A stretch of DNA of 64,000 nucleotides, taken from the NCBI GenBank assembly GCA_039714535.1, contig JBDLJC010000003.1, positions 42,178 to 106,177 of the forward strand. Reading direction: 5' to 3'. This DNA is from Thermodesulfobacteriota bacterium (lineage in GTDB: Bacteria > Desulfobacterota > Desulfobulbia > Desulfobulbales > JAGXFP01). Position numbers and translations under genes: made by a program. The notes beneath the pieces were generated by a model, which was not told where the DNA came from, did no database searches, and worked only from the letters and a program-made list of their open reading frames with translations. The first letter of the stretch is position 1; each line of letters begins with the position of its first letter. Positions 14,178 to 43,106 of the stretch are shown piece after piece.

Positions 14178-14254
14178 TGGTCGGGATGAGAGGATTCGAA
14201 CCTCCGACCCCAGCGTCCCGAACGCTGTGCTCTACCAGACTGAGCCACATCCCG
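14178..14254 (-). tRNA. tRNA-Pro (anticodon CGG), CCA encoded
   Basis: The reverse complement reads CGGGATG-TG-GCTCAGTCTGGTAGAGC-A-CAGCG-TTCGGGA-CGCTG-GGGTC-GGAGGTTCGAATCCTCT-CATCCCG-A-CCA. This folds into a full cloverleaf with CGG at positions 34-36. Confidence 0.95.
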
Positions 14255-14705: not shown

Positions 14706-17700
14706 TCAATAAAGCGCCGCCTCTCCTTCAACAACACGCAGATATTCTCCCAGTAAAACCCTCAAATCGGAGCTGTCAAAAGGCAGTTTCTCAACCTGCT
14801 GGACACATTGCACTAAGTGACGAATAACCTGCTCGCACTCTTTAAGAGAAGTTCTGGGCATATCGGTAAGGCCAGCCAGCCGATCAGCAATAACGGCCAG
14901 TTCATCAACGGAGGCTGGATATTGGCCGCCATAATCATCGAGCAAGTTAATGGCCTGCACCTGTAGCCCATCCGAATCTGGCTCAACCATAAAAGCATGG
15001 GTATAAACATCATACGGGACATAGCTGCCATCGAGGCCAAATGACACCTCGGTTTCTTTAAAGTATTCGCCACCCTGATCGGGAATATTCACAAAATAGC
15101 GATAAACAGCCTCTCCGCCGTCCTCGAAGCGGAATTGATATTCCAATCGTTCCTCGACAAGATCGAAAAGGGGTAAATAAATTAAACCTTCACCAAGTTT
15201 TTCGACCGCCAGAACATCCATACTCGAACCACGTAACTTTATTCTGGTCTCAAACAGGGCGATGCCACCGGCATCAGATCTAGCCTCCTGCGGCAGCAGA
15301 TATGACGCACCATTTCTTAACAGAGAGGCGTGTTCGGCTAACTCCCCGGACAGAGCCGATTCGATAATATTATAGGCAAAGAAAGCCGTCCGACCCTGGC
15401 CATACTCACCCAGCACCACGGCTGGCAGACCTTCTTCGGCCACGACCCCAGCCAGTTCACCACCATCGAGGGCCATCTTCAACATTCTGCCCTCGGCAAT
15501 CAGGGTCTGCTCCAGACCTATTGGACTCTCGGAAAGGAAGAGTTCGCGTTTACTCTCATTCATCGGCAGAGAACCGCTGAAATCAATCCCGAAAAGATCC
15601 TGCCAGATCGGATGAACGTTGTTGCCCCAGCTGGAGACCAAAAGCCCCATTCCCCGGTTCACGGCTTCACGCATCTCTCCCAGAAAACCGGCATCAAAAG
15701 GTGTATCCTGATTAATCACCATAGCCATATTGTAGATGCCTGAACGCAGCTCGCTCTTGAATTCATCCTTATCGGTGACCACACCAAGATAAATATCCGG
15801 GACGCCTAAAGCCTCCTCGAACAGCAATAGAAGATCATCACGGTCATAGGCTGGCCGGTTTTTGCCGTGCAAACCATCAGGATCTTCCGTCCAGACCAAT
15901 ACCCGGGGCAGATTCAAGATCCCGGTACTGACCTCAACACCGACCAGGGTAAAGGCCACCGATCTGACCGATTCGGTATTGGTTAGATTATCAACACTGT
16001 AGAAGTGGATGAGATGATCGCCAAAAGAGAGGTTCTCAAGGCGGAAGGGACTGTCATAGGTCCGCCAGTTGATCTGATCGTCAAAGCGATAATAGCTCGT
16101 ATTAACCCCGGAAAGCGGGTCAATTGCCGAGACAATCACCTGGGTCACTTTAGATAGGTAAGTACTGTCGTTACCCTCAAAACTCTTGCTGTTGAATTTG
16201 ACCCCGGTTACCGGTGGTTTGTTATCTAACACCACGGAATAGCTCTGCTCGGCTGCAACATTACCAAGCTGATCGGTGGACCGGTAGCCGATGGTATGGC
16301 CACCATCCGCCAGACCGGCGAGGTTGAGCGGAGCGTAGGCTGTCCAGCTGCCGCTATCGATTCGGTACTCGATTGCAGCAATGCCGGAGAAGACATCAGT
16401 AGCGCTTAAGGTAAATTCAGTTGCCCCCACCACATACATGGTGGTGTCCGTGCCAATATATTTCGGATCTCCAGTGGTGATAGTTGTTACCGGTGCGGTA
16501 TTATCCGCCACCACGGCAAGAGTCTGCTCAATTTCAATATTACCAAGCTGATCAATGGACCGGAATACGATGGTATGCGCGCCATCAGCCAGACCGGCGA
16601 GATTAAATGGTGCGTATGCTACCCAGCTGCCGTTATCAAGCCGGTACTCGGTGGTGGCAACGCCGGAGGAGGTATCAATTGCGCTTAAGGTAAACTCGGT
16701 GGCCCCACCTACATATAAAGTACCGTCACCAACCGTCTGCGGGCTACCAATACTGATCTCTGTTACAGGCGCGGCATTATCGACCATCACGGCAAGAGTC
16801 TGCTCAGTTTCAATATTACCAAGCTGATCAATGGACCGGAATGCGATGGTATGCGCGCCATCAGCCAGACCGGCGAGATTAAACGGTGCGTATGCTACCC
16901 AGCTGCCGTTATCAAGCCGGTACTCGGTGGTGGCAACGCCGGAGGAGGTATCAATTGCGCTTAAGGTAAACTCGGTGGCCCCACCTACATATAAAGTACC
17001 GTCACCAACCGTCTGCGGACTACCGATACTGATCTCTGTTACAGGCGCGGCATTATCGACCATCACGGCAAGAGTCTGCTCAGTTTCAATATTACCAAGC
17101 TGATCAATGGACCGAAATGCGATGGTATGCGCGCTATCCGCCAGACCGGCGAGATTAAACGGTGTATAGGCCAACCAGTTGCCGCTATCAAGACGGTACT
17201 CGGTGGTGGCAACACCCGAGAAGCTATCGAACGCACTCAAACTAAACACAGTTGATCCGCCCACATACAAGATGCCATCGGCCGCTGTATGCTTAGGATC
17301 ATCGCTAGTAATCTCAGTTACTGGTGCCGTATTGTCCACAATTACCGCCAGACTCAACTCATCCTCCACGTTACCCAGATTATCGGTTGAGCGGTAACCA
17401 ATGGTATGGCCGCCATCCGCCAGACCGGCGAGATTAAGCGGAGCGTACGCTGTCCAGCTACCGCTATCGATTCGGTACTCGGTGGTGGCAACGCCGGAGA
17501 AGACATCAGTAGCGCTTAAGGTAAACTCGGTTTCCCTAACCACATACATGGTGGTGTCCGTGCCAATATATTTCGGATCACCAGTGGTAATAGTTGTTAT
17601 CGGTGCGGTATTATCGACAACTACCGTCAAGCTCAGATCAGACTCCACGTTACCAAGCTGATCGGTGGACCGGTAGCCAATGGTATGCGCACCATCCAAC

Positions 17701-20027
17701 AGTCCGGCGAGATTAAACGGTGTGTAGATCAACCAGTTGCCGTTATCAAGCCGGTACTCGGTGGTGGCAACGCCGGAGGAGGTATCAATTACACTTAAGG
17801 TAAACTCGGTGGCCCCACCTACATATAAAGTACCGTCACCAACCGTCTGCGGGCTACCGATACTGATCTCTGTTACAGGCGCGGCATTATCGACCATCAC
17901 AGCCAAAGTCAGCTCGGCTTCAACATTACCGAGTTGATCTGTGGACCGGTAGCCAATGGTATGCGCGCCATCCGACAGGCCGACAAGAGTGAACGGGGCG
18001 TAAGCCAACCAAGTGGTGTTATCAAGCCGGTACTCAGTCGAAGCAATACCGGAGAAGCTATCGATAGCACTTAAGCTGAACTCGGTGGCCCCACCGACAT
18101 AGATAATACCGTCTGAACCAACCGCCTGCAGGCTGCCGATAGTGATAGTTGTCTCAGGCGCGCTATTATCAATCACAAATTCCAGCGTCTTATCAGCTTC
18201 CTGATTGCCTGCAGAATCAGTCGCACGATAGGTTAGTAAATTAGTGCCCTCGATTAATCCTTCCAAAGCAAACGGGGCAGAGTAATCTATCCATGAATCA
18301 GCACCATCCACCCGATATGCTATATCGGCTACCCCGGAGGCAACACTTCCGTTATCGGAAGATGTGAGTGAGATCAATGTCTGACCGGTTATATACAAGG
18401 TTCCGTCCGAACTAAATTGCGGTGTTCCCGTCTCAGCCGCACTCACAGGGGCAGTCCGGTCAAGTACAAAGTTAATCATCAGAGACGTGCTATTACCGGC
18501 CATATCCACTGCCGTTGCGGTCAAAGTATAAGCGCCCTCTTGAGTAATAGGCGTACCAGGCACATAAGGCTGGCCGTTCAGCAGATATGTTGTCAGTGCC
18601 TCATTGAGATGGAGATCATCAATGGTCAGATTCGGGATTAAATCACCATTGTAGAAACCACCTTGGACTACATTCTGCGGAATAATTACCGGCGCAGTCA
18701 AATCAATAGTAAACGAAATGCTTTGAGTTGTAGTGTTTCCGGCTGTATCTATAGCTGTTGCGGTCAGGGTATAAGTGTTTTCCTCGATTATGGCGGTACC
18801 CGCACTATAAGAGCTACCGTTCAAGGTTAAGCTTTGACTACCCGGATTCGTATCATCGACCGTTAGCTGCGGCGTAACGGCACCATTATAATGTGCCCCG
18901 TCCACGACGCCGGATAAAGTAATTATAGGATCAACATCATCGATAGCCAGGGCCGTAATTACCACACCGACACTTTCATTGCCGAAAGTATCATAAGCAC
19001 TGATGCGCAACGATTGTTCAACGCCGACAGCCAGCCCATCAACTTGCGCACTTGTTGCCTGGGGGGGGCGAACATCCGCCAACAAATCAGCGCCGAGATA
19101 AATGCGATAGCCCGCCGTATCAGCAGCCGTCGGCGGAGTCCAACTTAGAATAACCTGGCCGCTATCATCACCGGTTCTGTCAACCGCCCCAGCCGATGTT
19201 ACCTCGCCAGGAGCAACATTGACGGCCAGATCTATCGAGCTTTCACAATCAACTTCCCCGCCCGCAATAATGGCCTGTTCCAAGACAACATCAAGAGGAT
19301 GACTGTTGCCGGGATTGTCTATCTCATATACGTTGCCGACCACCAATGCGTTATCCGTCAGAATCTGGATAGATTCATCCAGAGAAAGTCCCAGTAACGA
19401 AGGCATAGGAGTAGTGCACCTTAAGGTAACAACACCTTCCTCATTGTAATCAAGCGGGTACGCCGGGCCACCGTCAAGCAGAAGAACATCCGTGAGAAAA
19501 ATCCTGATCTGTTCAGCTCCGACCAGTTCCCCTACTTTAAACATAAAACGGGCTACCGACCCGCTCCCGTCACTACGAATAGAGTCTTTGGTATGCGCAT
19601 AAGTAAAAAGGGCCGAGCCGTTCTCAAACGATTCATTATCGAGAACAAGGATACCGTTGTTTCCCTGCCCGTTAAGAAACATGGGACCAAGACCGGAACG
19701 GCTTGCCGTCGGCGCTGAGATTAAAAGGGGTGTGGAAACGGAAACATCAGCGCTTGTAGCCTGACCAAGATCATTCACTCCAGAGACAACGGCGCCGTCG
19801 GCAACGACATTAAGCCGGAACTGCACCGAGCCAAGCCCTTCGCTCGGGATTCCTTCGGCCATGATTTCGACTGAAAAGGACTCACCTGGCTCCACGCGCG
19901 CAGAGGAAGGTACAACCTTTACCCCGGCAGCCCAGGAATTTGCGGCAGCCAACAATAGCGACATAAAAAGGACCATAGTGCTCAACATCGCAACCTTGGT
20001 TTTATTCACTCGCCTTTCCGTTATCAT
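14706..20027 (-). CDS. Giant secreted modular protein. Domain order: signal peptide, cohesin-like domain, PASTA-like domain, FN3, three Ig-like domains, nine ~92-aa repeats, ~500-aa C-terminal region of unknown function
   Basis: Uninterrupted ORF. I prefer ATG 20027 (GAGAGGA lies 7 nt upstream) over the TTG at 20042. The signal peptide ends in ..AANSWA|AG. The cohesin-like segment is VKVVPSSARVEPGESFSVEIMAEGIPSEGLGSVQFRLN. The PASTA-like segment is LLGLSLDESIQILTDNALVVGNVYEID...VNV. The repeat consensus is TEYR(L/I)D.G.W..Y.PF.L.GL.DG.HTI.YRS.D.LGN.E. Confidence 0.85.
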   Translation of the reverse strand: MITERRVNKTKVAMLSTMVLFMSLLLAAANSWAAGVKVVPSSARVEPGESFSVEIMAEGIPSEGLGSVQFRLNVVADGAVVSGVNDLGQATSADVSVSTPLLISAPTASRSGLGPMFLNGQGNNGILVLDNESFENGSALFTYAHTKDSIRSDGSGSVARFMFKVGELVGAEQIRIFLTDVLLLDGGPAYPLDYNEEGVVTLRCTTPMPSLLGLSLDESIQILTDNALVVGNVYEIDNPGNSHPLDVVLEQAIIAGGEVDCESSIDLAVNVAPGEVTSAGAVDRTGDDSGQVILSWTPPTAADTAGYRIYLGADLLADVRPPQATSAQVDGLAVGVEQSLRISAYDTFGNESVGVVITALAIDDVDPIITLSGVVDGAHYNGAVTPQLTVDDTNPGSQSLTLNGSSYSAGTAIIEENTYTLTATAIDTAGNTTTQSISFTIDLTAPVIIPQNVVQGGFYNGDLIPNLTIDDLHLNEALTTYLLNGQPYVPGTPITQEGAYTLTATAVDMAGNSTSLMINFVLDRTAPVSAAETGTPQFSSDGTLYITGQTLISLTSSDNGSVASGVADIAYRVDGADSWIDYSAPFALEGLIEGTNLLTYRATDSAGNQEADKTLEFVIDNSAPETTITIGSLQAVGSDGIIYVGGATEFSLSAIDSFSGIASTEYRLDNTTWLAYAPFTLVGLSDGAHTIGYRSTDQLGNVEAELTLAVMVDNAAPVTEISIGSPQTVGDGTLYVGGATEFTLSVIDTSSGVATTEYRLDNGNWLIYTPFNLAGLLDGAHTIGYRSTDQLGNVESDLSLTVVVDNTAPITTITTGDPKYIGTDTTMYVVRETEFTLSATDVFSGVATTEYRIDSGSWTAYAPLNLAGLADGGHTIGYRSTDNLGNVEDELSLAVIVDNTAPVTEITSDDPKHTAADGILYVGGSTVFSLSAFDSFSGVATTEYRLDSGNWLAYTPFNLAGLADSAHTIAFRSIDQLGNIETEQTLAVMVDNAAPVTEISIGSPQTVGDGTLYVGGATEFTLSAIDTSSGVATTEYRLDNGSWVAYAPFNLAGLADGAHTIAFRSIDQLGNIETEQTLAVMVDNAAPVTEISIGSPQTVGDGTLYVGGATEFTLSAIDTSSGVATTEYRLDNGSWVAYAPFNLAGLADGAHTIVFRSIDQLGNIEIEQTLAVVADNTAPVTTITTGDPKYIGTDTTMYVVGATEFTLSATDVFSGIAAIEYRIDSGSWTAYAPLNLAGLADGGHTIGYRSTDQLGNVAAEQSYSVVLDNKPPVTGVKFNSKSFEGNDSTYLSKVTQVIVSAIDPLSGVNTSYYRFDDQINWRTYDSPFRLENLSFGDHLIHFYSVDNLTNTESVRSVAFTLVGVEVSTGILNLPRVLVWTEDPDGLHGKNRPAYDRDDLLLLFEEALGVPDIYLGVVTDKDEFKSELRSGIYNMAMVINQDTPFDAGFLGEMREAVNRGMGLLVSSWGNNVHPIWQDLFGIDFSGSLPMNESKRELFLSESPIGLEQTLIAEGRMLKMALDGGELAGVVAEEGLPAVVLGEYGQGRTAFFAYNIIESALSGELAEHASLLRNGASYLLPQEARSDAGGIALFETRIKLRGSSMDVLAVEKLGEGLIYLPLFDLVEERLEYQFRFEDGGEAVYRYFVNIPDQGGEYFKETEVSFGLDGSYVPYDVYTHAFMVEPDSDGLQVQAINLLDDYGGQYPASVDELAVIADRLAGLTDMPRTSLKECEQVIRHLVQCVQQVEKLPFDSSDLRVLLGEYLRVVEGEAALY
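15950..18450 (-). repeat. Nine tandem coding repeats with a 276-bp (92-aa) period inside the 1,773-aa gene. The central units are nearly identical.
   Basis: The string CACGGCAAGAGTCTGCTCA(A/G)TTTCAATATTACCAAGCTGATCAATGGACCG recurs at 16512, 16788 and 17064, an exact 276-bp period. The antisense ORFs 16555-16827 and 16831-17103 differ by 1 aa in 90. The outer units are progressively diverged and mosaic. Confidence 0.9.
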
Positions 20028-20083
20028 CACAAATCCTCTCAAAAGGAATAAATCTAAAATATTTTTAAAAAACGCGGATCTCG

Positions 20084-21058
20084 TTATTCCGCGTTGGTAT
20101 TTCCGTACTCAGTGGCAAACCGGGCAAAATCCCGCGCATCTATAATATCTTCCGCAACCACGGTCTCCATCTGGGCCGGAATTAAATTGTGATCAGGATT
20201 AAAGTCGCCGTCGTTGGCAGAATTACGATAATGGGATTTAAAAATGCCGAAGTCGGTTGCGTCGACAACACCGTCAAGATTGAAATCGGCAAAAAACCCC
20301 TTAACAGATTCAGAAACACTGCCTGCGTCGCTGTCTGCGGCAAACTTTCGATAATGGAGCAGGGTCGAGAAGGTGCCGCCGCGATAGATCCGAAGCATGG
20401 CTTTTTCGCCGCCCTGCAAATCAAGACTGGCCCCGTCCGTGCCGAATAAATTATTGAGATCCAGTACGCCTTCCGGTGCACTGATCCCCTCGCCGACGAA
20501 AGAACTGAGAGAACCATAGCCACCGTCCGTTTCCAGCAGCACCAGATCTCCTAAACCGGGAACCAGGGAAGCATCACCAGGTCGGATATAAACCTTGAAA
20601 CTCATAAGTTCGTTCGTTAACGGCAACAGTCCACCGCCCGACGCCTGCCGGTAACTTTTAACAATCCCAGCGGTAGTCACTTCCAGAAGAGAGGAGTAGC
20701 CAATACTGGCAGGAGCATCCGGGTCTTTGCTTACGGTACGCGCATAATAGGTTGTTGACGGCGCCAGTCCGGTGGCCCGGATTTTCATAATCCCCTTCTG
20801 TTGCGCAGCTGCCGCAACCTGGGCCGAAGCATCAGCCATTGGCGTCAACAGAACATCTTCACTAATCTGTCGCTGCATTGCCGCATCCAGGTAGATCTCC
20901 ACCTCTGGTACTGCCGCAACATCGGTCATCCAGACCACGGCAAAAGAAGTCGGCGTCACGTCAGTCACCCGAACGCTCACCGTTTCCGGCACGGCCAAAG
21001 CATTGCCCCGAAGGATCACGGCAAACAATAAGCCCAGTGCGGTTATAGATATCTTCAT
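20084..21058 (-). CDS. Secreted protein with an N-terminal FN3-like domain and a C-terminal dockerin-like module
   Basis: The start is set at ATG 21058 (MKISITALGLLFAVILRGNALA signal), which forms an ATGA overlap with the upstream stop. The C-terminus has the Ca-loop/F-hand pattern DFNLDGVVDATDFGIFKSHY, followed by a second degenerate segment AEDIIDARDFARFATEYG. Confidence 0.75.
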   Translation of the reverse strand: MKISITALGLLFAVILRGNALAVPETVSVRVTDVTPTSFAVVWMTDVAAVPEVEIYLDAAMQRQISEDVLLTPMADASAQVAAAAQQKGIMKIRATGLAPSTTYYARTVSKDPDAPASIGYSSLLEVTTAGIVKSYRQASGGGLLPLTNELMSFKVYIRPGDASLVPGLGDLVLLETDGGYGSLSSFVGEGISAPEGVLDLNNLFGTDGASLDLQGGEKAMLRIYRGGTFSTLLHYRKFAADSDAGSVSESVKGFFADFNLDGVVDATDFGIFKSHYRNSANDGDFNPDHNLIPAQMETVVAEDIIDARDFARFATEYGNTNAE

Positions 21059-21882
21059 TCCCGAACTCCTCCAGCTTGACTTCCCGGACAAGTCGGGCAG
21101 CCATCTTTATTGCTAACAGTCACCTTTTCACGGGCATCCGGTGAGGCAAGAAAGCCTCCTTCCATGACGCGAACATCCCCTTGGATATCCCATAGATATT
21201 TTTTATAAAATTTCAGGGCATCTACCTTGGCGGGAAAAACCAGAACCGTCGGCTCCTGGCTGGCAAGGTTTTCGCCCAAAACATTTGACGTGGACTTCCT
21301 CAGACTTCCGGCCAGGCGGGACAGCTTAACCTCAAAGTCAATGCCATTAACCGGAGAGCCGGTTGCCAATGGATATTTTTCCGCTTCCCCGGCGTCCCGC
21401 AAATCATGAACCACCACGGCAATTCCTTTAGCCAAGGCATTACGCAATTCATTAGGCATAATCTTTGCCAATTCAAAATCAGACTTGCCAATCAGGGGAT
21501 ATCCCACACCAAGCCAGGCACGGAGCCCGCCGCTCATCACAAACACCCGTTCATGACCACTGGCAGCCAAAGCTTCGGCAGCCTTTAATGCGTTTTGCTG
21601 CCCGAGACTATTGTCAACCAGCACCAGCATCTTGTTTTTTGAAAACCGTTTCATTGCCAGAATGGAATGGGGGATGTTTACCGCCCCTTCGATATGAATC
21701 GTCTCAAAAGAGGAGGCTGCCCGCACGTCGATCAACCACATCCTGCTGCCCTCCAGGAGCAGATCATGGACCTGCCGGGCCGATATCTGCTCCCATTCCG
21801 CCGCGAAAAGCACGACAGGAACAGACAGGACCATTAACATGATTAAAATTATCTTTTTCATAAGAACCTTATTCTTGTTCAT
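21055..21882 (-). CDS. Secreted tandem rhodanese-homology-domain protein lacking active-site cysteines, with a C-terminal CPTC motif
   Basis: Has a signal peptide and two rhodanese-like halves (WLIDVRAASSFETIHIEGAVNIP...VLVDNSLGQQ and VVHDLRD...VLVFPAKVDA). The catalytic-loop Cys position is D or P. The only cysteines are in the terminal ...DGCPTCPG. Confidence 0.75.
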   Translation of the reverse strand: MNKNKVLMKKIILIMLMVLSVPVVLFAAEWEQISARQVHDLLLEGSRMWLIDVRAASSFETIHIEGAVNIPHSILAMKRFSKNKMLVLVDNSLGQQNALKAAEALAASGHERVFVMSGGLRAWLGVGYPLIGKSDFELAKIMPNELRNALAKGIAVVVHDLRDAGEAEKYPLATGSPVNGIDFEVKLSRLAGSLRKSTSNVLGENLASQEPTVLVFPAKVDALKFYKKYLWDIQGDVRVMEGGFLASPDAREKVTVSNKDGCPTCPGSQAGGVRE

Positions 21883-21892
21883 CCTTCGATTT

Positions 21893-24800
21893 TCAAGGAG
21901 CCCAGCCGCTCACCATGTTTTTCATGGTCACAACCAAACCGTCACCGGGTTTAATCTCAAAGTTTTTACCGATAATCTCAAGTCCTGCCGATGTCTCCCG
22001 AACGGCGGCGCTCTGCCAGAGACCGGTTGTGTTATCGTAACGACGAACGCTGACGATATTCGCCAAACCCACCGAGTTCATCATGTCAGAGGCCTTATAG
22101 CCGTACGGAACGTTGAGCAGGCCAATATGGTTGGCGCCGACCCGGAGATTGTAAGTGGTCGTTTCGCCGCCGGCGGCGACCCGCAATGTCCCGGACGATT
22201 GCGAGTATAGATGCAAGGCCGAGCCGACGCTCAAGTCGAAATCAACCCCGCCCGCGCCACCGGCTTCACTGAACTGCTCCGTCTCCATAGTGGTCCCGTA
22301 TTTGAGGGCTTTTTCTATTGTCAGCCCCTCGGGCGTGGAGGAAATCAGATTGCCGGCTGTCGTGTAATCGCCGACCAGCTGCTGCCCGGTTGCCACAAGG
22401 TTGAAACCAACCTCGATGGGCACCTCAATCGGCAGCGCTACAACTTCAAGTTCGGCCATATAGATCTGGTAACGGCCCTCACGGTTATCCTGCCATACCA
22501 CGAAACCGTCGCCAATGGCCGGTTCTTCCTGTCTGGCGGGATTCGTGGTCAACGTACCACCGCCGCTTCCGACAAGATCAAGGAAGTTCAGGTTCGGATC
22601 ATCCACCCCGGCCGAATAATCGGTATAGACCAGCAGACCACCGTTAATGGCTGGCTGGCTGCGTTCCCCTTCACCATAAGTGAGCCGGATCGCTTCGCCG
22701 CCACCGCCGCGACGGTAGATCTCCTTGTGGCCGTCCCGCTGATCGGCCCAAAGGACATTACCTGAGAAAATGACAGGCTGGCTGGAATTGGCAGGTTCCA
22801 CGGTCAGCCGGGTCTCTTCACCGCTGGTCAGGTCGTATTTATAAATTTCCCCGAGCCCGTGCCGGTAATCTTCCCAGACCACGATATCGCCGGCGGCCAG
22901 GACCGGATGCACTTGGTCACGTTCATGACTGGTAAGCTGAATAACTTCGTTTGTTGCGAGGTTTTTGACGAAAATATCCCAATTGCCAGCGCTGTTATCC
23001 TGCCAGGCAACCCAGTTTTCCGATACGGTGGGATACTGCTGGTCGCCGATCCGGTCGCTCACGGTAAACTCGCCGGTACCACCCAGACGATACCCGTAAA
23101 TGTCCCAACCACCGTGCCGTTTGTCCTGCCAGACGATGAGATCACCATCGATCGCGGGGCGTTCCTGCCCGTATGGATCGGCAACGACTTGGGTCAGTGT
23201 CCCTTCAACAAGATCGTTCAGGTAAATATCCCAACTGCCGTTCCGCTTGTCCTGCCAGACGACCCTGGAACCGGATGCGGCCGGGTAGAGCTGATCGCCC
23301 GATCCACCATTGACCTGAACACCCGCGAACCAGTCGTTTACCGATAAGGTCAACACCTCGGAACCGGCGGTATGCGATGTCGCCTCGGGATCGCTTAAAT
23401 CATCCAGACCGTCCGAGACCAACACCTGTACTGTGTAATCCGCAGCAGGCACAAAGTTGCCGTTATCATCTTTACCGTCCCAAGGGACAATAATCGGGGT
23501 GGCGGTCAGAAAGGTTCCATCCAAGGTTCGAATAACCTTGTTGTTGCCATCCGTAATTTGAAGGGAATAGGATAAGCCCGGCACGGTGTCCGTGGCGTTC
23601 ACGGTAAAGGACACCGTTCTGACCGTCGTTACCCCGGCAGGGGCCTGCGGGCTGAAACCGTCCGCAGAAACGGTAAAATCGGTAATCTGCGGAGCACCAT
23701 CGTCCACCGTAAACTCGGCCGTTTTATGCTCTTCCTCATTTCCGGTCCGATCAACACTGAAGTATTCGAGGGAGTAGTCCCCCGCCTCCAGACTAAAGGG
23801 CAGCGCCGCGACATAATCAACATCCACCCCGGCTACCTTGCGCAGCATAGCCGCAACCCCGCTGCCGCCTTCATTATCCTCACCACTGAGGATGATCCGG
23901 GTCTGCGGGGTTATATATGTTAACTCTCCGCTAATGGCCGGGCCGTCGAAGATCAGGGAGGTGACCGGCGGCATAAAATCGATATCAGGCTGTTTGTAAA
24001 CCAGTTTGTAGCTGTTGGAAGTACCGCCGTTTTCACCGCGATAATCGATGAACTGCAACAGATAAACCGGCTGAAAGTCGCTGTCCAGCTTCTCGTCGAT
24101 CCAGAAGTTATGCGGGTCGAGATGGACGCCGTCGCTTCTAACAACATCCAGCAATTCCAGGAGACCTTGGGAAGGATCATTTATCCGCAAATAAACCCAG
24201 CCGGGAGGATTGGCCGACAGGTCAAGGTCGATATCGACCTCGGGCACTTGGGGCGTCGGCCGCTCAGGAGAGGCGATCAGGTTCACCGGGGTTACCGCTG
24301 CCTCCGCTTCTACTTTGTCGGTCGAACCATTCGGGTATTCGGACTCGTAGATCACATCCGGCATCGGCAAGGCCATCGGGTCGTCGGTGGTGCTCGGATT
24401 ATTTGCGACATCCCGCACCGCCAGATAATCGAGCAGTTCGTCTCGGCCCGGCAGATTGACCTTAACCTGATGGGTCAGATAATGGGCATTGGTTTCCTTA
24501 ATCAAGCTGGTCAGTTCGCCTCCCAATTCGGAGGCATGGCTGAAACTGACATCAAATCCAGAGAACCTGCCGGACAGAGTGGAGATCATCTTCCAATATG
24601 CAGTCGCGCCGTTCTTGCTGGCCAGATTACCCAAGTCAACCGTCAGACTCGAAGCAACTTCACTGTCATTAACCGCGGCGCCGAGCAGCTTGAAGTCGAT
24701 CAGCAACCCCTGCTTGTTTTCAATAATTTTCGGTTGGGCCGAATCTATTTTCAGCTTATTGGCCGGGCCATAACCGTCATTCATGACACGCACGGCCAAA

Positions 24801-25363
24801 GGAAAGGGTACGGGGGGTTCAACCTCGTCAGTAAAAGGGTTGTCGCCGATCACCTGATACGGGGTGAAATAGTCGAGATAGAGCTCCGGCATCGGCCTGA
24901 CATTGATCCGGTCGGGAAAGATATCGACCACCTGTTCAATGCCGGCCACCGTATAGGTCAAGGTAGCGCCAACGAAGTAGTAAACTCCGGTCGGGGACAT
25001 GCCCCCTGATCCGGGCGACGGGATAATCAGCCAGTGGACTTCGGCCCTGGTCCCGGCCTTGACCGTCCCGGTGCCATCGACATCAGAGATATTGCTGGTA
25101 ACCGGCTCCTGGACGAAAAAGATCTCGTCCTTGCGGTTACCGTCACCGTCCTCGATCTCGACATCAACCCGGACGCTCGCAAGATCCTTGGTCAGCAGGT
25201 TGTTGGTCAGGACCAGTTTGGCGTCAAACGCCACCCGCTCAAGGGTCAACTCCTGAACGATTTCCAGCACCACCTTGGCACAGGCGCTGTCTGCAGCCTG
25301 GACACGGGAAACCGGTGCCGACAAAAACAGACTTAATACTATGAAAAGCCACAACCTCTTCAT
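21893..25363 (-). CDS. Secreted 1,156-aa protein. Domain order: ~450-aa N-terminal region of unknown function, Ig-like (FlgD-Ig-like) domains, seven-repeat beta-propeller, C-terminal beta-rich domain(s)
   Basis: ATG start with GAGG upstream. The signal peptide ends in ..SRVQA|AD. There are seven repeats of about 45 aa with the consensus (Y/E)P.(I/V)....(V/I)VWQD.R.G.WDIY. The Ig-like segment includes VPWDGKDDNGNFVPAADYTVQVLVSD. Confidence 0.85.
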   Translation of the reverse strand: MKRLWLFIVLSLFLSAPVSRVQAADSACAKVVLEIVQELTLERVAFDAKLVLTNNLLTKDLASVRVDVEIEDGDGNRKDEIFFVQEPVTSNISDVDGTGTVKAGTRAEVHWLIIPSPGSGGMSPTGVYYFVGATLTYTVAGIEQVVDIFPDRINVRPMPELYLDYFTPYQVIGDNPFTDEVEPPVPFPLAVRVMNDGYGPANKLKIDSAQPKIIENKQGLLIDFKLLGAAVNDSEVASSLTVDLGNLASKNGATAYWKMISTLSGRFSGFDVSFSHASELGGELTSLIKETNAHYLTHQVKVNLPGRDELLDYLAVRDVANNPSTTDDPMALPMPDVIYESEYPNGSTDKVEAEAAVTPVNLIASPERPTPQVPEVDIDLDLSANPPGWVYLRINDPSQGLLELLDVVRSDGVHLDPHNFWIDEKLDSDFQPVYLLQFIDYRGENGGTSNSYKLVYKQPDIDFMPPVTSLIFDGPAISGELTYITPQTRIILSGEDNEGGSGVAAMLRKVAGVDVDYVAALPFSLEAGDYSLEYFSVDRTGNEEEHKTAEFTVDDGAPQITDFTVSADGFSPQAPAGVTTVRTVSFTVNATDTVPGLSYSLQITDGNNKVIRTLDGTFLTATPIIVPWDGKDDNGNFVPAADYTVQVLVSDGLDDLSDPEATSHTAGSEVLTLSVNDWFAGVQVNGGSGDQLYPAASGSRVVWQDKRNGSWDIYLNDLVEGTLTQVVADPYGQERPAIDGDLIVWQDKRHGGWDIYGYRLGGTGEFTVSDRIGDQQYPTVSENWVAWQDNSAGNWDIFVKNLATNEVIQLTSHERDQVHPVLAAGDIVVWEDYRHGLGEIYKYDLTSGEETRLTVEPANSSQPVIFSGNVLWADQRDGHKEIYRRGGGGEAIRLTYGEGERSQPAINGGLLVYTDYSAGVDDPNLNFLDLVGSGGGTLTTNPARQEEPAIGDGFVVWQDNREGRYQIYMAELEVVALPIEVPIEVGFNLVATGQQLVGDYTTAGNLISSTPEGLTIEKALKYGTTMETEQFSEAGGAGGVDFDLSVGSALHLYSQSSGTLRVAAGGETTTYNLRVGANHIGLLNVPYGYKASDMMNSVGLANIVSVRRYDNTTGLWQSAAVRETSAGLEIIGKNFEIKPGDGLVVTMKNMVSGWAP

Positions 25364-25629: not shown

Positions 25630-26985
25630 TCAATTGACTGCATATGTACCAGTCCTGATCGACTCTAACACCTCGGCCCCGCTCTGATCGCTGTTGGGCA
25701 TAAGACCCACACCCGGTCCGTTCATGATAAAGGTGAAAGCCACTTCCCGCCCCACCGCATCAATCCCATATCCGGCAAGAGCGTAAACGTCCTCCAACCA
25801 ACCGCTTTTGACCCGAAACCGAGGGTCGTCAAAAGGGATGTCCTTGACCGTTCCTTCCCTTCCCGGCCTGGGCAGGGTGTTTTTAAACCTTTCAAACCAC
25901 GGCTTCTTCGAAACTTGGTATAGGTACTTGGTCATGAAGTCGGCCGTTACCCGGTTCCTACCGCTCAGGCCAGAACCATCGGAGATCTCAACCTCGTCCA
26001 TCGGCAGTCCCAGACCTTTCAGGAACTCACCGGTTACCCGAACACCCTTCTCCCTTGTTCCCGGCACACCGAATTTATCAGTGCCCGCCTTAAGGAACAG
26101 GTTATCGGCCAGCACGTTAAGGCTATGGACATTCATCTTGCGCAGCATCTCGTCCTTATCCGGCCCTGGTAATAAATCAGCCAGCAAAACGGCTTCTCCA
26201 GGAGTCTTGCCCTTTCTGATCTTGCCCTTAACGGCAACGCCCTTATCCGCCAATAAGGACTTCAAGACACCGCCTGCATAGAGAGCAGGATCATCCAGGC
26301 TAAAACGTTCGCTGACCATCCCGCCGTTTTCACCTATATTGCCGGTGACCTTATAGGCCAAGTCGTCAAGCCGGGTGATTTTGATCGTATTGGCGGCTCC
26401 CTTAACCGTCCTGGCCGGCACCGCAATCCTGACAGCCTTGTTCGGAGGCTCGATTTCTACAGGGGGAGCCTCTCCCGGCCAGCCCGGTTTTACAGTTACG
26501 GCGACTGTATGGAGATCGAGACCAAGGGCACCGGGCGGGGCATAGGCTGAGCCCCTCCGAGTTCTTTCAAGCCCCTTTATATCGAGCATCGAATCATCCA
26601 CCACAATATCGCCCGTTACTTCCCCGGTCCCTTTGTTAACCAGTTTGTCAACTACCTCTACCAATCCAGCCTTGTCCAAGAGGGCATTCCCGCCACCCTG
26701 CAGATAAAGATTTCCCGAAGCATCGACTGACAGCCGACCATCAAGTCTCATTTTTCCAGCAAGAGCAAAACCGGCTACAAACAACTTATTCAAAGATCCA
26801 GGTCCCATTAGCTTGGCCTGGCCCGAACCATTATTAACATTTAGCGTCCCACCTAAATCCCTGACCGTCAGACTCCACTCCGCCTGTTTGGGAAGCTGCT
26901 TCTCAAATCCTGCTACGCCTGCTGAAGACAAAAATATCATCAACAGACTGGCAACAAATCTCATGGAAAAAGAGTTCAAAACCAC
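25630..26985 (-). CDS. dacB: PBP4-family D-alanyl-D-alanine carboxypeptidase/endopeptidase (peptidase S13-like)
   Basis: All three penicillin-binding motifs occur in the expected order: SLNK (SxxK), DGSGLSGRN and KSG. Signal peptide present. The start is either GTG 26985 or ATG 26964. Confidence 0.7.
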   Translation of the reverse strand: MVLNSFSMRFVASLLMIFLSSAGVAGFEKQLPKQAEWSLTVRDLGGTLNVNNGSGQAKLMGPGSLNKLFVAGFALAGKMRLDGRLSVDASGNLYLQGGGNALLDKAGLVEVVDKLVNKGTGEVTGDIVVDDSMLDIKGLERTRRGSAYAPPGALGLDLHTVAVTVKPGWPGEAPPVEIEPPNKAVRIAVPARTVKGAANTIKITRLDDLAYKVTGNIGENGGMVSERFSLDDPALYAGGVLKSLLADKGVAVKGKIRKGKTPGEAVLLADLLPGPDKDEMLRKMNVHSLNVLADNLFLKAGTDKFGVPGTREKGVRVTGEFLKGLGLPMDEVEISDGSGLSGRNRVTADFMTKYLYQVSKKPWFERFKNTLPRPGREGTVKDIPFDDPRFRVKSGWLEDVYALAGYGIDAVGREVAFTFIMNGPGVGLMPNSDQSGAEVLESIRTGTYAVN

Positions 26986-27107: not shown

Positions 27108-27695
27108 TTATTCTCCATGCAATACGACTCTGTCTTCATCAAGATAATTAGAAACAGGATAATCAGAATAAATATTTGTTGCTTTCCAGAAATTATCAAT
27201 TTTTCTAAAATTCAGGTTGTTTTTTTTCTCTGTACCATCTTCCTTTTTTACTGAGTATTCTATAATTATCATTTTTTCAGTATCAATCCACCTAAGGAGG
27301 TATATTGTTGATCCAGTATAAATCTCGTTCCACTTATCAATTAAAGCTTGAGAAGATTGTTGAGAACTGATAATGCTTTCGAGCTCTAATTTAGATTCAG
27401 AATCATAACAATCTAAAACCCAACTAATATCCTTATTTTTCATACCAGAAAGAATTGACAAAAGAGTCTTCTCAGGTGAACTAAAATCTACATTTATTTT
27501 TTCTATAAAATCTACGGACAAAGGCTGCTTGTATAGACGTACATCATAATTATATGCCGATTCAATAATCAGAGTTTTATTATCAACTGATTCAATAGGG
27601 TAAGATGGGTTTTCTAGTGCATGAGAAGGACAACACAATATTATAACAACATAAAAACTTAACAAAATAATTCTAAACACATTACACCTCATCAA
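27108..27695 (-). CDS. Small secreted hypothetical protein encoded in strongly AT-rich DNA
   Basis: 195-aa ORF lying 26 nt downstream of the giant gene stop. The N-terminal hydrophobic signal is FRIILLSFYVVIILCCPSHA|LE. No recognisable motif and no clear SD. Its composition matches the 3' end of the giant gene. Confidence 0.55.
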   Translation of the reverse strand: MMRCNVFRIILLSFYVVIILCCPSHALENPSYPIESVDNKTLIIESAYNYDVRLYKQPLSVDFIEKINVDFSSPEKTLLSILSGMKNKDISWVLDCYDSESKLELESIISSQQSSQALIDKWNEIYTGSTIYLLRWIDTEKMIIIEYSVKKEDGTEKKNNLNFRKIDNFWKATNIYSDYPVSNYLDEDRVVLHGE

Positions 27696-27721: not shown

Positions 27722-30700
27722 TCAATTAAAATATTTTCTAAGATCCCAATCTACTGAATCCCATTTTTCTTTTGGTACGACATAAAAACCTTTATAAGAA
27801 TATTTTTTTAGACCATCAGCTAAAACGGCTTCTCCTTTAAAATAAACTCCTTTAAACCGAGGAACTCCCTTATAAATTCCATCTTCTACCGGACCAACCA
27901 TTTTCAAACCAGAGTTAATGCTTCCACCTATTTTCAAAATTCCACCAGCTATCTTTCCTTCGGCCCCCCCTGATGCTGTAAAATCAAAACCTCCAGTTCC
28001 ATCATACCAATCCGGCAAATCACACAGGTTCGCTTGTATATGCGCCTTAATTTCAACTTCACCCTTACCTTCAACATAGGCAAAAGCTGACACAAATTTT
28101 AATGGAAATTGATAGAAAGGAGCTTTTATTTTACCCACAATTTTACCTGAAATACCGCCTTCAATTACGGGTAAGAGTAGTTCTTTATTTTCACAGCAAC
28201 TTAAAGTTTTGTCATAATCGACTTGAATTGCACCGTCTAAAGACAATTCGGCATTTAAAAATTTAATATATTTTTTTGCAGGATTTAGGATAGGCGGTTC
28301 TACGATTTTAAAGCTTGTTTTGTCTGCCAATTCATCTGGAATAGGTTTCAATTCCCCGCCAACACATTCTCTACAAAAGAACTCATCAATTTTTGTTCCA
28401 TCCGGTTTAGGTATGAGTTGCCCATCCACAAAATCCCAACAAAGATCATCTTCCAAAACCACAACCCTAATAGTGCTTTGCCCATTAGATTTCAGAGGTA
28501 TTGCCACCTTGGATTCATCACAAGATACGCACTCTACATTAACAGAGACTCGATATTCGCCTGGTTCAGGGTATTTGTACGAAAAACCGGAGGTATATCT
28601 ACTTTCTCCATTCCCCAAACGCCACTCGAGAGTTTCCAGATCACATTCACCCTCGAAAGCAAAAATATTTCTAGCAGAGAAATCGAGTGTTTCACCAACC
28701 ACTATAGTTATTTCCTCTTCAAACCATTCCGCATCTTCACCAGAAAGCCGCACTAAACTTTCTATCTCAGCTTCGGGAGGGTGAGGGTCCCATACACAAT
28801 CACCATCCTCACATCTCTCGTTTATAGTACAGGCATCATCATCTCTACAATCCATACACTCACAAGGATCTGTAACAGCAATTGGAGTAGTTTGACCAGG
28901 GGCACCGCCTCCCCCCCCCTGCCAACCACCAGCATAACCACCACCGCCCGAGCCTCCACTAGGTGCAACAGCCGAACCAGCCGGGACACTAGGCGGACAA
29001 AGAGTTGGAATAGCCATCCGGAAATCGACCAGTCTTGAGATAATCCTTTCGAAAGCTGTGTTCGGACAGATGATAACGGAACTACTAAGTTTAATTGTTA
29101 CATAACTGAAACAATTGCCGCCGCCGAAACCGGTAACCTGCTCGAAGAGAGACTTGAATGATGACAGGATAGTCCGGTCTCGCTTGGTCACTCGATACTG
29201 GACGCGGATAGTCTCCATAGGTTCGATCCGATCAGGAATAAATTCCTTCATAACCTCGATATCAAAATCACCATAACTGCTCGGAAAGTCGATCCCGACA
29301 TCGTAGACGGCAATCAAACCATGGTTCTTGACGGTAAATTCACCGTTAAAGACTTCATTCACTCCCATCTCCGGCAGGGTAATACCGGCCGGTTCAGCGA
29401 TCAGCACCGGAGTCGGGACATTGGTCTCGAAGGTCTGGGTAATGGTGACCTCGTACTTATCCTCGATAACCGTCGGCGTTACGCTCCACTCGATTTCGAC
29501 CATATTGACCTCAAGGGCCAGGTGGACGGTGGAGGTAAGGCCGGGCTCGACTACGAATGAACCGGAGAACGGCACACAGCCAGGAGAACTGACATTGTAA
29601 CTATAGCGTCCTTCGGCAATATCATTAAGCATAACCGTGCCGTCACTAGCGGTTCGCAAGGTATAACGCAGATCCAGCAACTGCTGATGCTGCAGGGTAA
29701 TGCTGGCGCCGGAGAGCTTCTCGTAAATCTCATTCTGGACGTCAAAATAGACACTACCCACCGCATCGGAAGAGACGGTGACCTGGACGTTGAAGCGAAA
29801 GGGGACATGATTGTCCGAATAAATGACTAGACTGTCGTCGTAAATGCCTGGAGCGACGGTCTCACCGGGTCGTAACATAATGCCGATATCCTTGCTGCTG
29901 CCGGCATTAATATCACCAAGGAGCTTATCGATGGTCAAATCGAGCCACGGAATGGACGGGCCGTCGATCCGGGCATTTCGCAACACTTCCTGACCACTGT
30001 TACTGATGGTGAAATTAACCATCTTCTGGGTGCCACGCATCATCCCGGTATCGATGTAAGAGGGATAGGTCCGGATCTGCGGGGTCAGGGTGACCATGCC
30101 GACATTGACATTGACCTTGCCGCCCAGGCCCGCATCGGTATCGACGGTGAGGCTGGCGTAACCGGTCTGGGGCGCGTCATCGGCGGCGATGATCTTCAGG
30201 TAGACCCGCTGGTTTTCGCCGCCGCCGATGATCGTATCGCCGCTGTTAATGATCGTCGCGGTCAAGCCCTGCGAGGCCTCGCTGACCATGGTCAGACCGG
30301 TAATAGCAACATTGCCGAGATTGCGGATATTGACAGGGACATTGTAAGAGCGGCCCTGGGCGAGATTGAGATTGAAGACCGAAGGTGAAACTAGCAGGCC
30401 GATAATGTTGAAGGTGGCCTGAACGTCACGGTCGTTAAGCTCGGGATGGGTGGCCCAGACGGAATAGGTGCCCGCCTCGTTGGCCGCCGGGGTAAAGGTG
30501 TGACTGAAGTTACCTTCTGCATCGGTATCGACATTGAAGAACCGGTCGAAGCCTCTGGTAGACACGCCAATCCTAACCGGGACATTGGCTACCGGCAGAC
30601 CATCGATGCTGGAGAGCGCGGTGCCGCTGATCGTCACCGGTTTTCCCATATGATAGACTTCCTTGTCGGTAGTTGCGGCCGCAAAGTAAGGAAGATCGGC

Positions 30701-33700
30701 GATCTCCGACTGGACCGTCCGGCTGAAACCAGGAGCGGTGACCTGATCGGGCCAATCGTAATGGTAATAGGTCTTGGCGACCCTGGCCTCAATCAAGACC
30801 TTGGCCGGAGCGTTGACCGGTACCTGGAAGGTAATCGGCTCGGAGAGGAAACTTCCGCCCGGCTCCAATCTAGCGCTGGCATAGCCGTTGGAGTTGACCA
30901 CGGCGCTGCCGGTCCGCTGGTCAAGAAAACCCTTGGCCAGCAGATTGCCGTCCTGATCGCGGAGATAGACGCTAACCTCATCGGTGAGCCCGCCTCTCTC
31001 GCTGGTCAGCAACTCCAGTTGGGCAGAACCAAGATTGTTGACCTTGATCCTGACCTGAGCCTCGGCGCCACGCACCAGGGGCTCGTTAAACACCTCAAAG
31101 GCCGAACCGGCTGCTGCAACCGGAACAGCCGAGGTCCGGGTCAGGACGACGCTGGTTCCCGGCGCGCTAGCTAGGGTGACGGTGGTCACAACGGCGACGC
31201 TGTCAAGGGCATCAAGGGCCGTGGCCGCAACCTTTTCGATGATTTTCGCTTCACCAGCAACGAGACTGATCGGGCCGGGTTTGATGGTTTCCACGTTGCT
31301 ACCAACCTTAAAGTTCAGTTTACTGATTGTCAGGTCTTCACCGCCGGTCAGGGCCAGGGAGATCTTTTCAATCACCCCACGGCGCAGAACGGTATCGGCA
31401 GGAATGTCGATATCAAGGGCAGGCAATCTTACATCCCGGATCGGGCTCTCATTGCCTTGATCATCAACGACCGACACGCCATAGGTTGCGCCATTGCCGT
31501 CATAGAACCCATCTGAATAAGTGGTAGACGGGGTCGGCGCGCTATTGACCCGATTGCCGTTCCGATAGACATAGTAGCCCTGGATCGAACCAGCATCACT
31601 CTGCCAGGCAAGAACGGGGCCTGCATCTTCATGGCGGGTAAGATTTAGACTGTTTACAGGCGCCACAGGAATGGCCAGTTCGACACTTGTTGACAGAGCA
31701 CTTTCGTTACCCAATGCGTCAACCGAGGTCACACCATAAAAAATCTGGCTGGTCGATGGCGAGGTATCAATTGCTTCCGTGGTAGAAACGACTACTACCG
31801 GCTTGCGGCTGCCAACAGAAGCAAACGAAGAGGCCGCACGATAGAGCCGGTAAGAAGCAGGGATTTCGTCTTGTGGAACATCCCAAACAGCAGTCACACC
31901 GTCACCATCGAGACTTAGGCTTAGACCGGATGGAACAGCCGGACCAGTGCGGTCGGAAACACCTTCAACTTCTGCACACCGGTCCCCTTCGGTTCCGAGC
32001 AGACCTACTGCGGAGACCGAATAGTTCCAGGCACCGTCAGCAGACGGCAGCTCAGAGAAAGTCAGACCGGTAGTGGTGCCGATCTCAACAGCAACACCGG
32101 CAAGACGTCTGTAAACTTTATAGGCCTGGACTCGATCAACCGAACGGCTCCAAGAGAGATCAATTTTACCACCTAATTTTGACGTTGCAGTGAGATCGGT
32201 CGGGGCAGCAGGCGCCGGTGGTGTATCAGTATAGAGATAGAGTTTTTCTCCCGTGGCGACAGTCTCACCGGTGTTGCCGAAGTTGTCGATAGCGTTAACT
32301 AGTTTAAACGTTGCTTCGCCCTCGGCAAGGGGTGAGATGTCTATTTGCGCCGTCCAATGCAGATCGTCGCCGGCCATCACCGGACCATTAAATGCGGCGC
32401 TATTGCCAGTGGCATCGAACAGTGTCATTACCGGGATATCGACCGGCGCTTCGTCGAAGGAGAAATCAACGGTCAGAGATTCCGTGCCAATCTGCTGTAA
32501 AACTGTAGGTGTTGTAATGGTTGCGACCGGACCTCGAACATCAAGGGTCGGGCCTTGGCCCTGACTGTTGCCACGGTTGCCGACAAGATCTTTGCCGGAG
32601 AATTTCCAAACAGTCGGTCCGTGCGGCCCGGCAGGGTCGATCTCCAGGACGGCGCTGTAGTTGAGTTCGTCAACCTTGACGGGAGAAAGCACAATGGGCG
32701 AGCCTATCTGTGGCTCCAAGCTGAGGAATGGCATTTCCTGCAACGGCTCGGAAACGGTCATGCTAACGTTTATCGTCCCGGGACCGGCGACAACGGTAGA
32801 AGCAGGAGTGCCGCCGTTAAACGCGAACATAATCCCGGTTGCGGCCGGCGCGATACCATCCGAGGCAACATTGATCTGCGTGGAGAGACCACTTTCATTG
32901 CCGGCACCGTCAAGGGCTGTTACTGCGTAATAGCTTGCCGTATCGTCAGCCGGAATAATCTCTTTGAATAGATAGGGAATCGGGGTGTTGTTTAGGGGTT
33001 GCATCCCGACAGTTACCGAAGTCGGCAGCGACGCTTGATCGCTATATAAATTATAGCCGGTCGGCAATTCACCCGGCCCTGATTGCCAGTTGAACTGGAT
33101 CGTGCCACCAGGTAATACCTTGGAGACAAGATCCACCGGTGCCGGTGGGGCCCCGGTATCAACCGTGATGATGTGCGGCATGCTGAAGGCGCTGGCGCCA
33201 CCACGGTGGGTGGCCTGCAGGTAGATATTGTTATCTCCTTCGGCTAGAGGAACCGAGGTAAAGGTCCAACTGCCATCGGCCGCCGTATTGGTTTCGCCGG
33301 TAATCTGATCATTGACCTTTAAGGTTACAGTGGTATAGAGATCGGCGGTGCCTCTAATAGTAACCAGATAGTCCGGTGTTATTGCCTCGACTGTGTGGCT
33401 ACCGTATACAGGCACATTCGGCGGGGCCAGACTGACCGTGACTGTTTTGCTTGTTTCCGTGAAGTTGCCGTGTTCGTCATAGGCGACAACTTTGACCGAA
33501 TGGTTGCCGTCACTTGCCGCCACCAGATTCCACAGATAGCTGACGGATGATCCGGTGGTGCTCTGGACCAGGCTGCTGTCGATATACAGCTCAACCCGGG
33601 CCATTGCGCTTTCGTTGTCAGTACCATTTGCCTTGAGAGTAACCGTTCTGGCCAATACCTGATTCTGGGTCAGCGGGATATCACCCTGGGAACTAACAAT

Positions 33701-41716: not shown

Positions 41717-41750
41717 GTGTAAATTTCTCAGTTTTAAATGGTCTTGGTTT

Positions 41751-43014: not shown

Positions 43015-43067
43015 AAAAAGAGCCTGAAATAGATTCAGGGGTTAGAAGAAAACTTCTAACCCCTGAA
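43015..43067 (-). terminator. Intrinsic terminator downstream of hup
   Basis: Perfect 15-bp stem (TTCAGGGGTTAGAAG / CTTCTAACCCCTGAA, 43034-43048 and 43053-43067) with a 4-nt loop. On the minus strand it is followed by the U-rich sequence TCTATTTCAGGCTCTTTTT. Confidence 0.6.
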
Positions 43068-43106
43068 CAAACAACACTTTGAATACTTACGTATTTACAA
43101 ACAGAA

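Follow-up and report, generated by a model that had tools for sequence, protein, structure and literature searches.

Do a dockerin and a cohesin that are encoded side by side, outside a cellulose-degrading context, belong to each other, and what would they assemble? The question is raised by a 64-kb stretch of DNA (referred to here, at its full length, as the window) from a metagenome-assembled genome (MAG) of Thermodesulfobacteriota, in which two neighbouring genes on the minus strand encode a small secreted protein that ends in a dockerin module and a giant one that opens with a cohesin domain. Both proteins are deposited in NCBI as 'hypothetical protein'. Non-cellulosomal cohesin-dockerin pairs have been widely predicted, and their cargo and purpose are mostly unknown. 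We show that both modules are true homologues of dockerin and cohesin, and that they are genetically coupled, lying almost always side by side in a conserved cassette of Sec-exported proteins. The sequence evidence makes it probable that the two adjacent genes encode a cognate non-cellulosomal pair, in which the small protein would dock in a Ca-dependent manner on the N-terminus of the giant.

Results

Identity of the two modules

The elements on which the question turns are the following, with lengths in amino acids (aa) and, for the cohesin, residue numbers in the longest open reading frame (ORF).

20084..21058, minus strand: gene for the 324-aa secreted protein with a fibronectin type III (FN3) domain, a beta-sandwich and a dockerin (MEN8134195.1)
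20087..20320, minus strand: dockerin module, formed by the C-terminal 78 aa of the small protein (repeat 1, NPD motif, repeat 2)
20252-20287, minus strand: canonical Ca loop of repeat 1, DFNLDGVVDATD, with a helix after the loop
14706..20042, minus strand: gene for the giant secreted protein (MEN8134194.1)
19416..19928, minus strand: cohesin domain, 171 aa, residues 39-209 of the 1778-aa ORF

Scanned in isolation, the 78-aa module matches the Pfam Dockerin_1 model (PF00404) at 27.6 bits, with an E-value of 3.4e-6 and a cut-off of 22.9; in a scan of the whole protein the match is sub-threshold, at 15 bits. Across the family of the small protein, Dockerin_1 is matched by 28 of 32 members (best E-value 4.6e-11) and any one EF-hand model by four at most, and members with a 72-aa module align to Dockerin_1 positions 3-51 of 57 at 35-43 bits. 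When the family profile was compared with the PDB, the solved dockerins of C. cellulolyticum and C. thermocellum ranked first, 2vn5_B having an E-value of 1.6e-5.

Repeat 1 of the module is a canonical 12-residue loop (D1 N3 D5 G6 D9 D12) with its helix, and the canonical Ca-loop regular expression finds one match in all six-frame ORFs of the window, at DFNLDGVVDATD. An invariant NPD motif follows, and then repeat 2, which consists of a degenerate loop and a conserved helix, IDARDFARFATEYG; AlphaFold2 predicts, at low confidence, a helix immediately behind each loop. The family consensus, GFFADINLDGKVDxxDFxxFKxQYRT..YNPDxNF…GxIDARDFARFAxEYGRT, makes the segment duplication visible, with GKVD..DF..F..Y in both halves. 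Few parts of the small-protein family are as well conserved as these C-terminal 72-78 residues, and in some relatives, such as P0083 and P0090, repeat 2 is itself canonical. A relative from Desulfocapsa (locus L022, 9968-10891) ends in a divergent single dockerin-like repeat, ADINDDNRIGLQESVNIMEKL, which both the family hidden Markov model (HMM) and Pfam missed.

For the cohesin, the isolated domain passes the Pfam Cohesin model (PF00963) marginally, with 24.9 bits and a cut-off of 24.1, and scores 21 bits within the whole protein. The same model is matched by 25 of 42 family members (E<0.01), and no other family is matched. Word-indexed homologue searches of this region returned one and then ten proteins; the remainder came from an exhaustive profile search of 1.84 billion representatives, which gave 55 clusters at E<1e-30. 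In these clusters the cohesin is nearly always N-terminal, typically at residues ~28-200, in proteins of up to about 3100 aa, and the shorter cohesin-side proteins, down to about 150 aa, are probably fragments. Weaker profile matches lie at 1e-8 to 1e-4; among the ten strongest (E 3e-8 to 7e-5), eight are bona fide Pfam cohesin proteins, several of which carry 4-7 cohesins. With hhalign, the family aligns to true cohesins over 132 columns with a probability of 98.75 % and an E-value of 1.5e-16, in a test that is not fully independent, the reference set having been chosen from the profile-search matches.

The AlphaFold2 (AF2) model of the cohesin has a predicted local distance difference test (pLDDT) score of 95.7 and a predicted template-modelling score (pTM) of 0.91. 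Its best 50 Foldseek matches in the PDB are all cohesins, of types I, II and III and non-cellulosomal, with E-values of 1e-7 to 3e-5, template-modelling (TM) scores of 0.53-0.67 and a probability of 1.00. The identity of the domain is supported by the Pfam match, the hhalign comparison with true cohesins and the predicted fold. A highly conserved insertion of about 30 residues, PLLISAPTASRSGLGPMFLNGQGNNGILVLDN, is specific to this family, and the conservation of the domain ranks among the highest in a giant protein that otherwise varies. Single-sequence searches of the PDB with the dockerin and cohesin modules gave no significant match.

An earlier interpretation of the window, made from its letters without database searches (the sequence-only reading), had placed a dockerin at the C-terminus of the small protein and a cohesin near the N-terminus of the giant, at 19427-19940, and had described the second dockerin segment as degenerate. 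All three claims hold, the cohesin boundaries shifting only to 19416-19928, and the profile searches that it had suggested put both modules above their Pfam cut-offs when scanned in isolation. It had also named unrelated predicted folds as a refuting outcome. None of its refuting outcomes that could be computed came about, and the cohesin model is confidently of the cohesin fold. The dockerin region is modelled with low confidence, at a pLDDT of 38-60.

Coupling of the two genes

Local HMMs of four pieces were scanned over 64 loci from genomes and metagenomes. After removal of duplicates, 42 loci had a dockerin-ending small gene and at least 300 nucleotides (nt) downstream of it, and in 41 of these distinct loci the next gene on the same strand opens with the cohesin. 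Spacer and signal peptide together put a median of 159 nt between the stop codon and the first residue of the cohesin. Where at least 1 kb of downstream sequence was available, a PASTA domain is present after the cohesin (31 of 34 loci). The hosts include Geobacter, Desulfuromonas, Geothermobacter hydrogeniphilus HR-1, Geotalea toluenoxydans and MAGs of Nitrospirota/Thermodesulfovibrio.

A 330-aa dockerin-ending gene likewise lies just upstream of the two cohesin-side members that diverge most among those sampled, whose stalks consist of PKD, He_PIG and MopE domains, not of the OmpL47 barrels found in the window. Since members with such divergent stalks keep the pair, the dockerin partner and the cohesin-PASTA head are the constant elements and the stalk the exchangeable one. 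Each cassette contains one dockerin and one cohesin, as does the 64-kb window, which together with the cassettes is the scope of this count.

Relatives without a full dockerin, which also have no cohesin gene beside them, are part of the case for coupling. Locus L024, with neither a dockerin nor an adjacent cohesin gene, is the only clean double absence, and no cohesin gene adjoins the divergent half-dockerin of L022. In a mirror-tree comparison of 13 loci, dockerin and cohesin distances correlate with r 0.70, and with a partial r of only 0.29 once the 1156-aa protein is controlled for.

The small protein

The remaining features of the small protein are as follows.

20993..21058, minus strand: Sec signal peptide, MKISITALGLLFAVILRGNALA/VPETV, read from the sequence; the ALA-VPE junction is invariant in the family
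20723..20989, minus strand: FN3-type domain, purple-acid-phosphatase N-terminal-like (Pfam Pur_ac_phosph_N, E 7e-6)
20321..20686, minus strand: conserved middle beta-sandwich domain of no known family, with the invariant motifs PEGVLDLNNLF, YRGG and HYR

Its ATG at 21058 overlaps the stop codon of the upstream rhodanese gene as ATGA, with a GGAGGAG ribosome-binding site upstream. Proteins of this family are ~320 aa long and form 187 clusters with 50-64 % identity. The FN3-type domain is modelled with a pLDDT of 81-97, and its Foldseek matches are tandem FN3 structures. The middle domain, modelled with low to moderate confidence, has no sequence relative that could be found in the PDB. Its invariant polar residues are N160, E207, D211, N214, Y236, R237, H246 and R248 (numbering of the 335-aa ORF), and it may be a ligand-binding or catalytic cargo domain.

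Two relatives depart from this plan. In L024 (9911-11767) a distant FN3/middle-domain protein has, in place of a dockerin, thrombospondin-type-3-like Ca-binding repeats and a C-terminal domain. This last domain and the one at the C-terminus of the 1156-aa cassette protein described below are homologous (24 % over 178 aa, E 3e-10), so that the fusion may connect the small protein to the beta-propeller protein as a 'Rosetta stone'. In the draft genome of Geotalea toluenoxydans JCM 15764 (L020, 7794-10920) two overlapping ORFs stand in place of one small gene, and matches to the rhodanese and 1156-aa genes are incomplete; this damage reflects either frameshift sequencing errors or pseudogenisation of the cassette.

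The giant protein

Around its cohesin, the giant protein is made up of the following parts, the Ig-like domains being immunoglobulin-like.

19929..20027, minus strand: Sec signal peptide (…LLLAAANSWA/AGVKV), read from the sequence
19200..19415, minus strand: PASTA domain, 72 aa, directly after the cohesin (family profile)
15954..19199, minus strand: stalk of Ig-like repeats (Big_13, Big_3_3 and 11 OmpL47-type barrels), boundaries approximate
14706..15953, minus strand: C-terminal domain of ~415 aa, no clear family, with a faint GATase1_like match

The giant gene lies 57 nt beyond the small gene when it is read from the ATG at 20027, which gives a product of 1773 aa; a start at the TTG at 20042 gives 1778 aa, and the deposited protein has 1767 aa. 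The lengths of 324 and 1773 aa given by the sequence-only reading are right with the ATG starts at 21058 and 20027. That reading had also noticed a PASTA-like domain in the giant, which proves to be real at the family level: the family profile matches PknB PASTA with an E-value of 2.7e-5, and homologues carry a Pfam PASTA assignment. Taken alone, the window sequence is sub-threshold for Pfam PASTA (PF03793), with 14.3 bits against 23.2.

Within the stalk, tandem repeats of 276 bp occupy 16222-18146 (6.9 copies, 77 % matches), with one OmpL47-type barrel in each. Two adjacent copies, at ~16555-17103, are nearly identical, which suggests either a recent duplication or a risk of repeat collapse or expansion in the assembly. 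A comparison of the C-terminal 415 aa with PDB sequences gave nothing significant, the one match being at chance level (E 0.13), and no sorting tag or membrane anchor was seen when the C-terminus was read from the sequence.

The cassette and its surroundings

From 25363 to 14706, the minus strand carries four close-packed genes, encoding the 1156-aa protein, the rhodanese, the 324-aa protein and the giant, and Sec-type signal peptides were read from the sequence of all four products. With a peptidase gene upstream they form a cassette of five genes, encoding a PBP4-like peptidase, a 1156-aa beta-propeller protein, a secreted rhodanese, the FN3-dockerin protein and the cohesin-PASTA giant. Its further features are as follows.

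25630..26985, minus strand: PBP4-type D-Ala-D-Ala carboxy/endopeptidase (S13), adjoining the cassette in at least 15 loci
21893..25363, minus strand: 1156-aa secreted protein with an OmpL47-type barrel, FlgD_ig, a TolB-like beta-propeller and N- and C-terminal domains of unknown type; more conserved than any other cassette member
21055..21882, minus strand: secreted rhodanese-domain protein, 275 aa, a conserved cassette member
20067..20095, minus strand: terminator-like hairpin between the dockerin gene and the cohesin gene, with an 8-bp stem, the stop codon of the small gene in the loop and a U6 tract

In a wider comparison of cassettes, the 1156-aa protein and the rhodanese are kept in 21 loci and PBP4 in 15. 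The PASTA domain and the conserved PBP4 neighbour suggest a possible link to peptidoglycan. With the hairpin (-11.2 kcal/mol, z -2.5) in place, the giant gene could be expressed less than the small one. The hairpin is not conserved: the intergenic spacing varies, and in many other loci the two genes abut or overlap.

Several observations concern the rest of the window. Just 3' of the giant gene, a tRNA-Pro (CGG) at 14178-14254 on the minus strand marks the end of the cassette and is the sole Rfam match in the window. Upstream of PBP4, a gene on the minus strand (27722-41716) encodes a 4664-aa secreted protein with right-handed beta-helix, Big_7, Big_13, fn3 and PKD domains, which has an exact internal duplication of roughly 300 aa in its N-terminal region; related giants lie near the cassette in seven other loci. 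A 195-aa ORF with no family match (27108-27695) lies between this gene and that of PBP4. The ~1.4 kb upstream of the 4664-aa giant gene (41717-43106) is low in G+C (0.42-0.44), with no ORF of at least 150 aa and no Rfam family match, and is flanked by a gene for an HU-like DNA-binding protein (43107-43385). No secreted carbohydrate-active enzyme (CAZyme) was found in the 64-kb window, the sole carbohydrate enzyme found there being a cytoplasmic alpha-glucan phosphorylase 40 kb off, which bears out the sequence-only reading that no such enzymes lie nearby.

Discussion

Taken together, the coupled genes and the module identities probably reflect a cognate pair. The small protein, consisting of signal peptide, FN3 domain, beta-sandwich and dockerin, would be exported by Sec. 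Its C-terminal dockerin would then fold round Ca2+ and bind the giant by its one cohesin, at the very N-terminus. The giant is ordered as signal peptide, cohesin, PASTA, long Ig-like stalk and C-terminal domain. The outcome would be a two-protein envelope or surface assembly with a constant cohesin-PASTA head and a lineage-variable stalk, and PASTA, together with the neighbouring PBP4-like peptidase, may tie this assembly to peptidoglycan. The proposal of the sequence-only reading that the FN3-dockerin protein plugs onto the giant has strong indirect support, because the cohesin gene follows in 41 of 42 loci.

In type I dockerins, Ca-loop positions 10-11 contact the cohesin. Here they are variable in repeat 1 and conserved, as Ala-Arg/Gln, in repeat 2 only. 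Since the conservation is confined to repeat 2, we infer one mode of binding, in which the second helix of the dockerin would play the main part. In the sub-lineage of the window, the loop of repeat 2 may not bind Ca.

Several observations weigh against a cognate pair of this kind. Some concern the dockerin. In the lineage of the window, repeat 2 has a 6-residue insertion, has lost Gly6 and is non-acidic at the early positions, and only repeat 1 matches the Pfam profile. The family profile also matches an EF-hand protein, a sarcoplasmic Ca-binding protein, at 2e-4. AF2 places helices at 278-288 and 319-328, directly after both loops, at a pLDDT of only 38-60, and in this region the uncertainty of the whole-protein model does not allow folds to be compared meaningfully. 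Others concern the coupling. In loci L039 and L060-L062 (the P0109 lineage), the sole exception to the pairing, the dockerin gene is intact and is followed, after a gap of ~290 nt, by a gene without signal peptide, cohesin or PASTA, a state that may reflect a 5' deletion or rearrangement of the giant gene. In addition, the mirror-tree correlation of dockerin and cohesin falls to a partial r of 0.29 when it is controlled for the 1156-aa protein (13 loci).

The points on coupling bear on an explanation in which the two modules are genuine homologues and not partners, the dockerin binding a cohesin elsewhere in the genome, or the cohesin another ligand, with adjacency reflecting membership of the same envelope pathway. 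The P0109 lineage, which keeps its dockerin without an adjacent cohesin, is consistent with this, as is the partial mirror-tree analysis, in which the cohesin tracks the FN3/middle domains (0.66) better than the dockerin. Moreover, the module counts cover only the window and the cassettes. The explanation has, on the other hand, to account for adjacency in 41 of 42 loci of two phyla despite complete turnover of the stalk domains, for the fact that the window and the cassettes each have just one cohesin and one dockerin, and for the constant N-terminal position of the cohesin. We therefore consider it unlikely.

The points on the dockerin bear on a different explanation, in which the C-terminal module binds Ca in EF-hand fashion, as a stabiliser or a sensor, or else anchors the protein to a surface polymer that is not itself protein, and the cohesin fold is a beta-sandwich spacer, so that there is no plug and socket. 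It would fit the match to the sarcoplasmic protein, the fact that some family members pass EF-hand models, the degenerate loop 2 of this lineage and the low confidence of the dockerin model. Cohesin-fold domains without a known dockerin partner also exist, as in TMEM132 and some clostridial proteins. Dockerin_1 is nevertheless the best and commonest Pfam match of the family, far ahead of any EF-hand model, and independent structural roles would leave unexplained both the strict co-occurrence of the modules and the position of the cohesin among the best-conserved parts of a variable protein. On this evidence an EF-hand and spacer arrangement seems quite improbable.

That the resemblances are chance motif matches with no real modules behind them, as whole-protein single-sequence scores below the Pfam cut-offs and insignificant single-sequence PDB searches might suggest, is vanishingly improbable and is refuted by the agreement of the Dockerin_1 and Cohesin family matches, the profile-profile comparison by hhalign and the Foldseek fold search.

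A cellulosome was considered and rejected: the 64 kb contain one cohesin, one dockerin and no secreted CAZyme, and the cargo consists of FN3 and an unknown beta-sandwich. A wider proposition sees in the whole five-gene cassette a system, so far undescribed, by which anaerobic diderm bacteria assemble fibres or adhesins anchored in the envelope, with cohesin-dockerin as connector, PASTA as peptidoglycan anchor and a stalk swapped between lineages. We put it forward as speculative and regard it as unlikely.

If the two genes do encode a cognate pair, the locus offers a clean one-to-one case, with a defined partner, a conserved cargo domain and a fixed gene context that spans metal- and sulfur-cycling Desulfuromonadia and Thermodesulfovibrionia-type Nitrospirota. 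One cultured strain, Geothermobacter hydrogeniphilus HR-1, has the cassette in intact form, which makes the role of a non-cellulosomal pair directly testable. Should binding be true, it would provide an orthogonal cohesin-dockerin specificity for protein-assembly engineering, and would point to a PASTA-containing envelope structure in diderm bacteria.

Comparison with known systems

The cellulosomal type I and type II pairs are the obvious reference, exemplified by the Cel5A dockerin-cohesin complex of C. cellulolyticum (2vn5) and the ScaB type II cohesin of A. cellulolyticus (1qzn/3f2l). The cohesin described here shares their jelly-roll fold, a nine-stranded beta-sandwich, with TM scores of up to 0.66, and the dockerin shares the C-terminal position on a secreted protein and, at the level of the family consensus, the duplicated segment of Ca loop plus helix. 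Unlike in those systems, there is one cohesin and one dockerin, with no multi-cohesin scaffoldin and no CAZyme cargo. The modules differ as well, the cohesin in its conserved ~30-residue insertion and the dockerin in its invariant NPD linker motif and, in this lineage, its degenerate second loop. The host is also different, belonging to Thermodesulfobacteriota, which we take to be diderm.

The best structural match is the cohesin-dockerin complex of Ruminococcus flavefaciens ScaC (5lxv), with an E-value of 1.2e-7. It is also the only cohesin in the PDB that the sequence profile reached, at E 0.14; sequence identity is only ~15 %. ScaC differs in being an adaptor scaffoldin of a fibre-degrading cellulosome.

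The PASTA domain and the stalk have their own counterparts. PASTA domains of PknB-type kinases and class B penicillin-binding proteins (PBPs), such as S. aureus PknB (3m9g/3py9), are matched by the 72-aa domain at the E-value given above; here only one copy is present, joined to a cohesin, and the secreted protein that carries it is not a kinase or a PBP. The multi-beta-barrel surface protein OmpL47 of Leptospira (NCBIfam NF047441/NF047446) is the model for the 11 barrels of the stalk (E 2e-160). In this family, by contrast, the stalk type is not conserved, and OmpL47 is without the cohesin-PASTA head. A full-text literature search for cohesin, dockerin and PASTA found no description of this cohesin-dockerin family or of a cohesin-PASTA fusion.

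The closest parallels lie outside cellulosomes. Modules from Archaeoglobus fulgidus (2xdh) and Clostridium perfringens (2jh2) are among the fold matches, at ranks 19 and 49, and putative adhesin cohesin-dockerin pairs are found in anaerobic methanotrophic (ANME) archaea and syntrophic sulfate reducers (PMC10553843, PMC9012536). Like the modules described here, these occur outside a cellulose-degrading context, and they have been proposed to act in the assembly of surface structures or adhesins. What sets the present case apart is a strictly conserved adjacent gene pair within a five-gene cassette, and a cohesin that is fused to PASTA, N-terminal on a giant Ig-repeat protein and unannotated. 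Non-cellulosomal pairs are an already known class, to which this pair is an unannotated addition.

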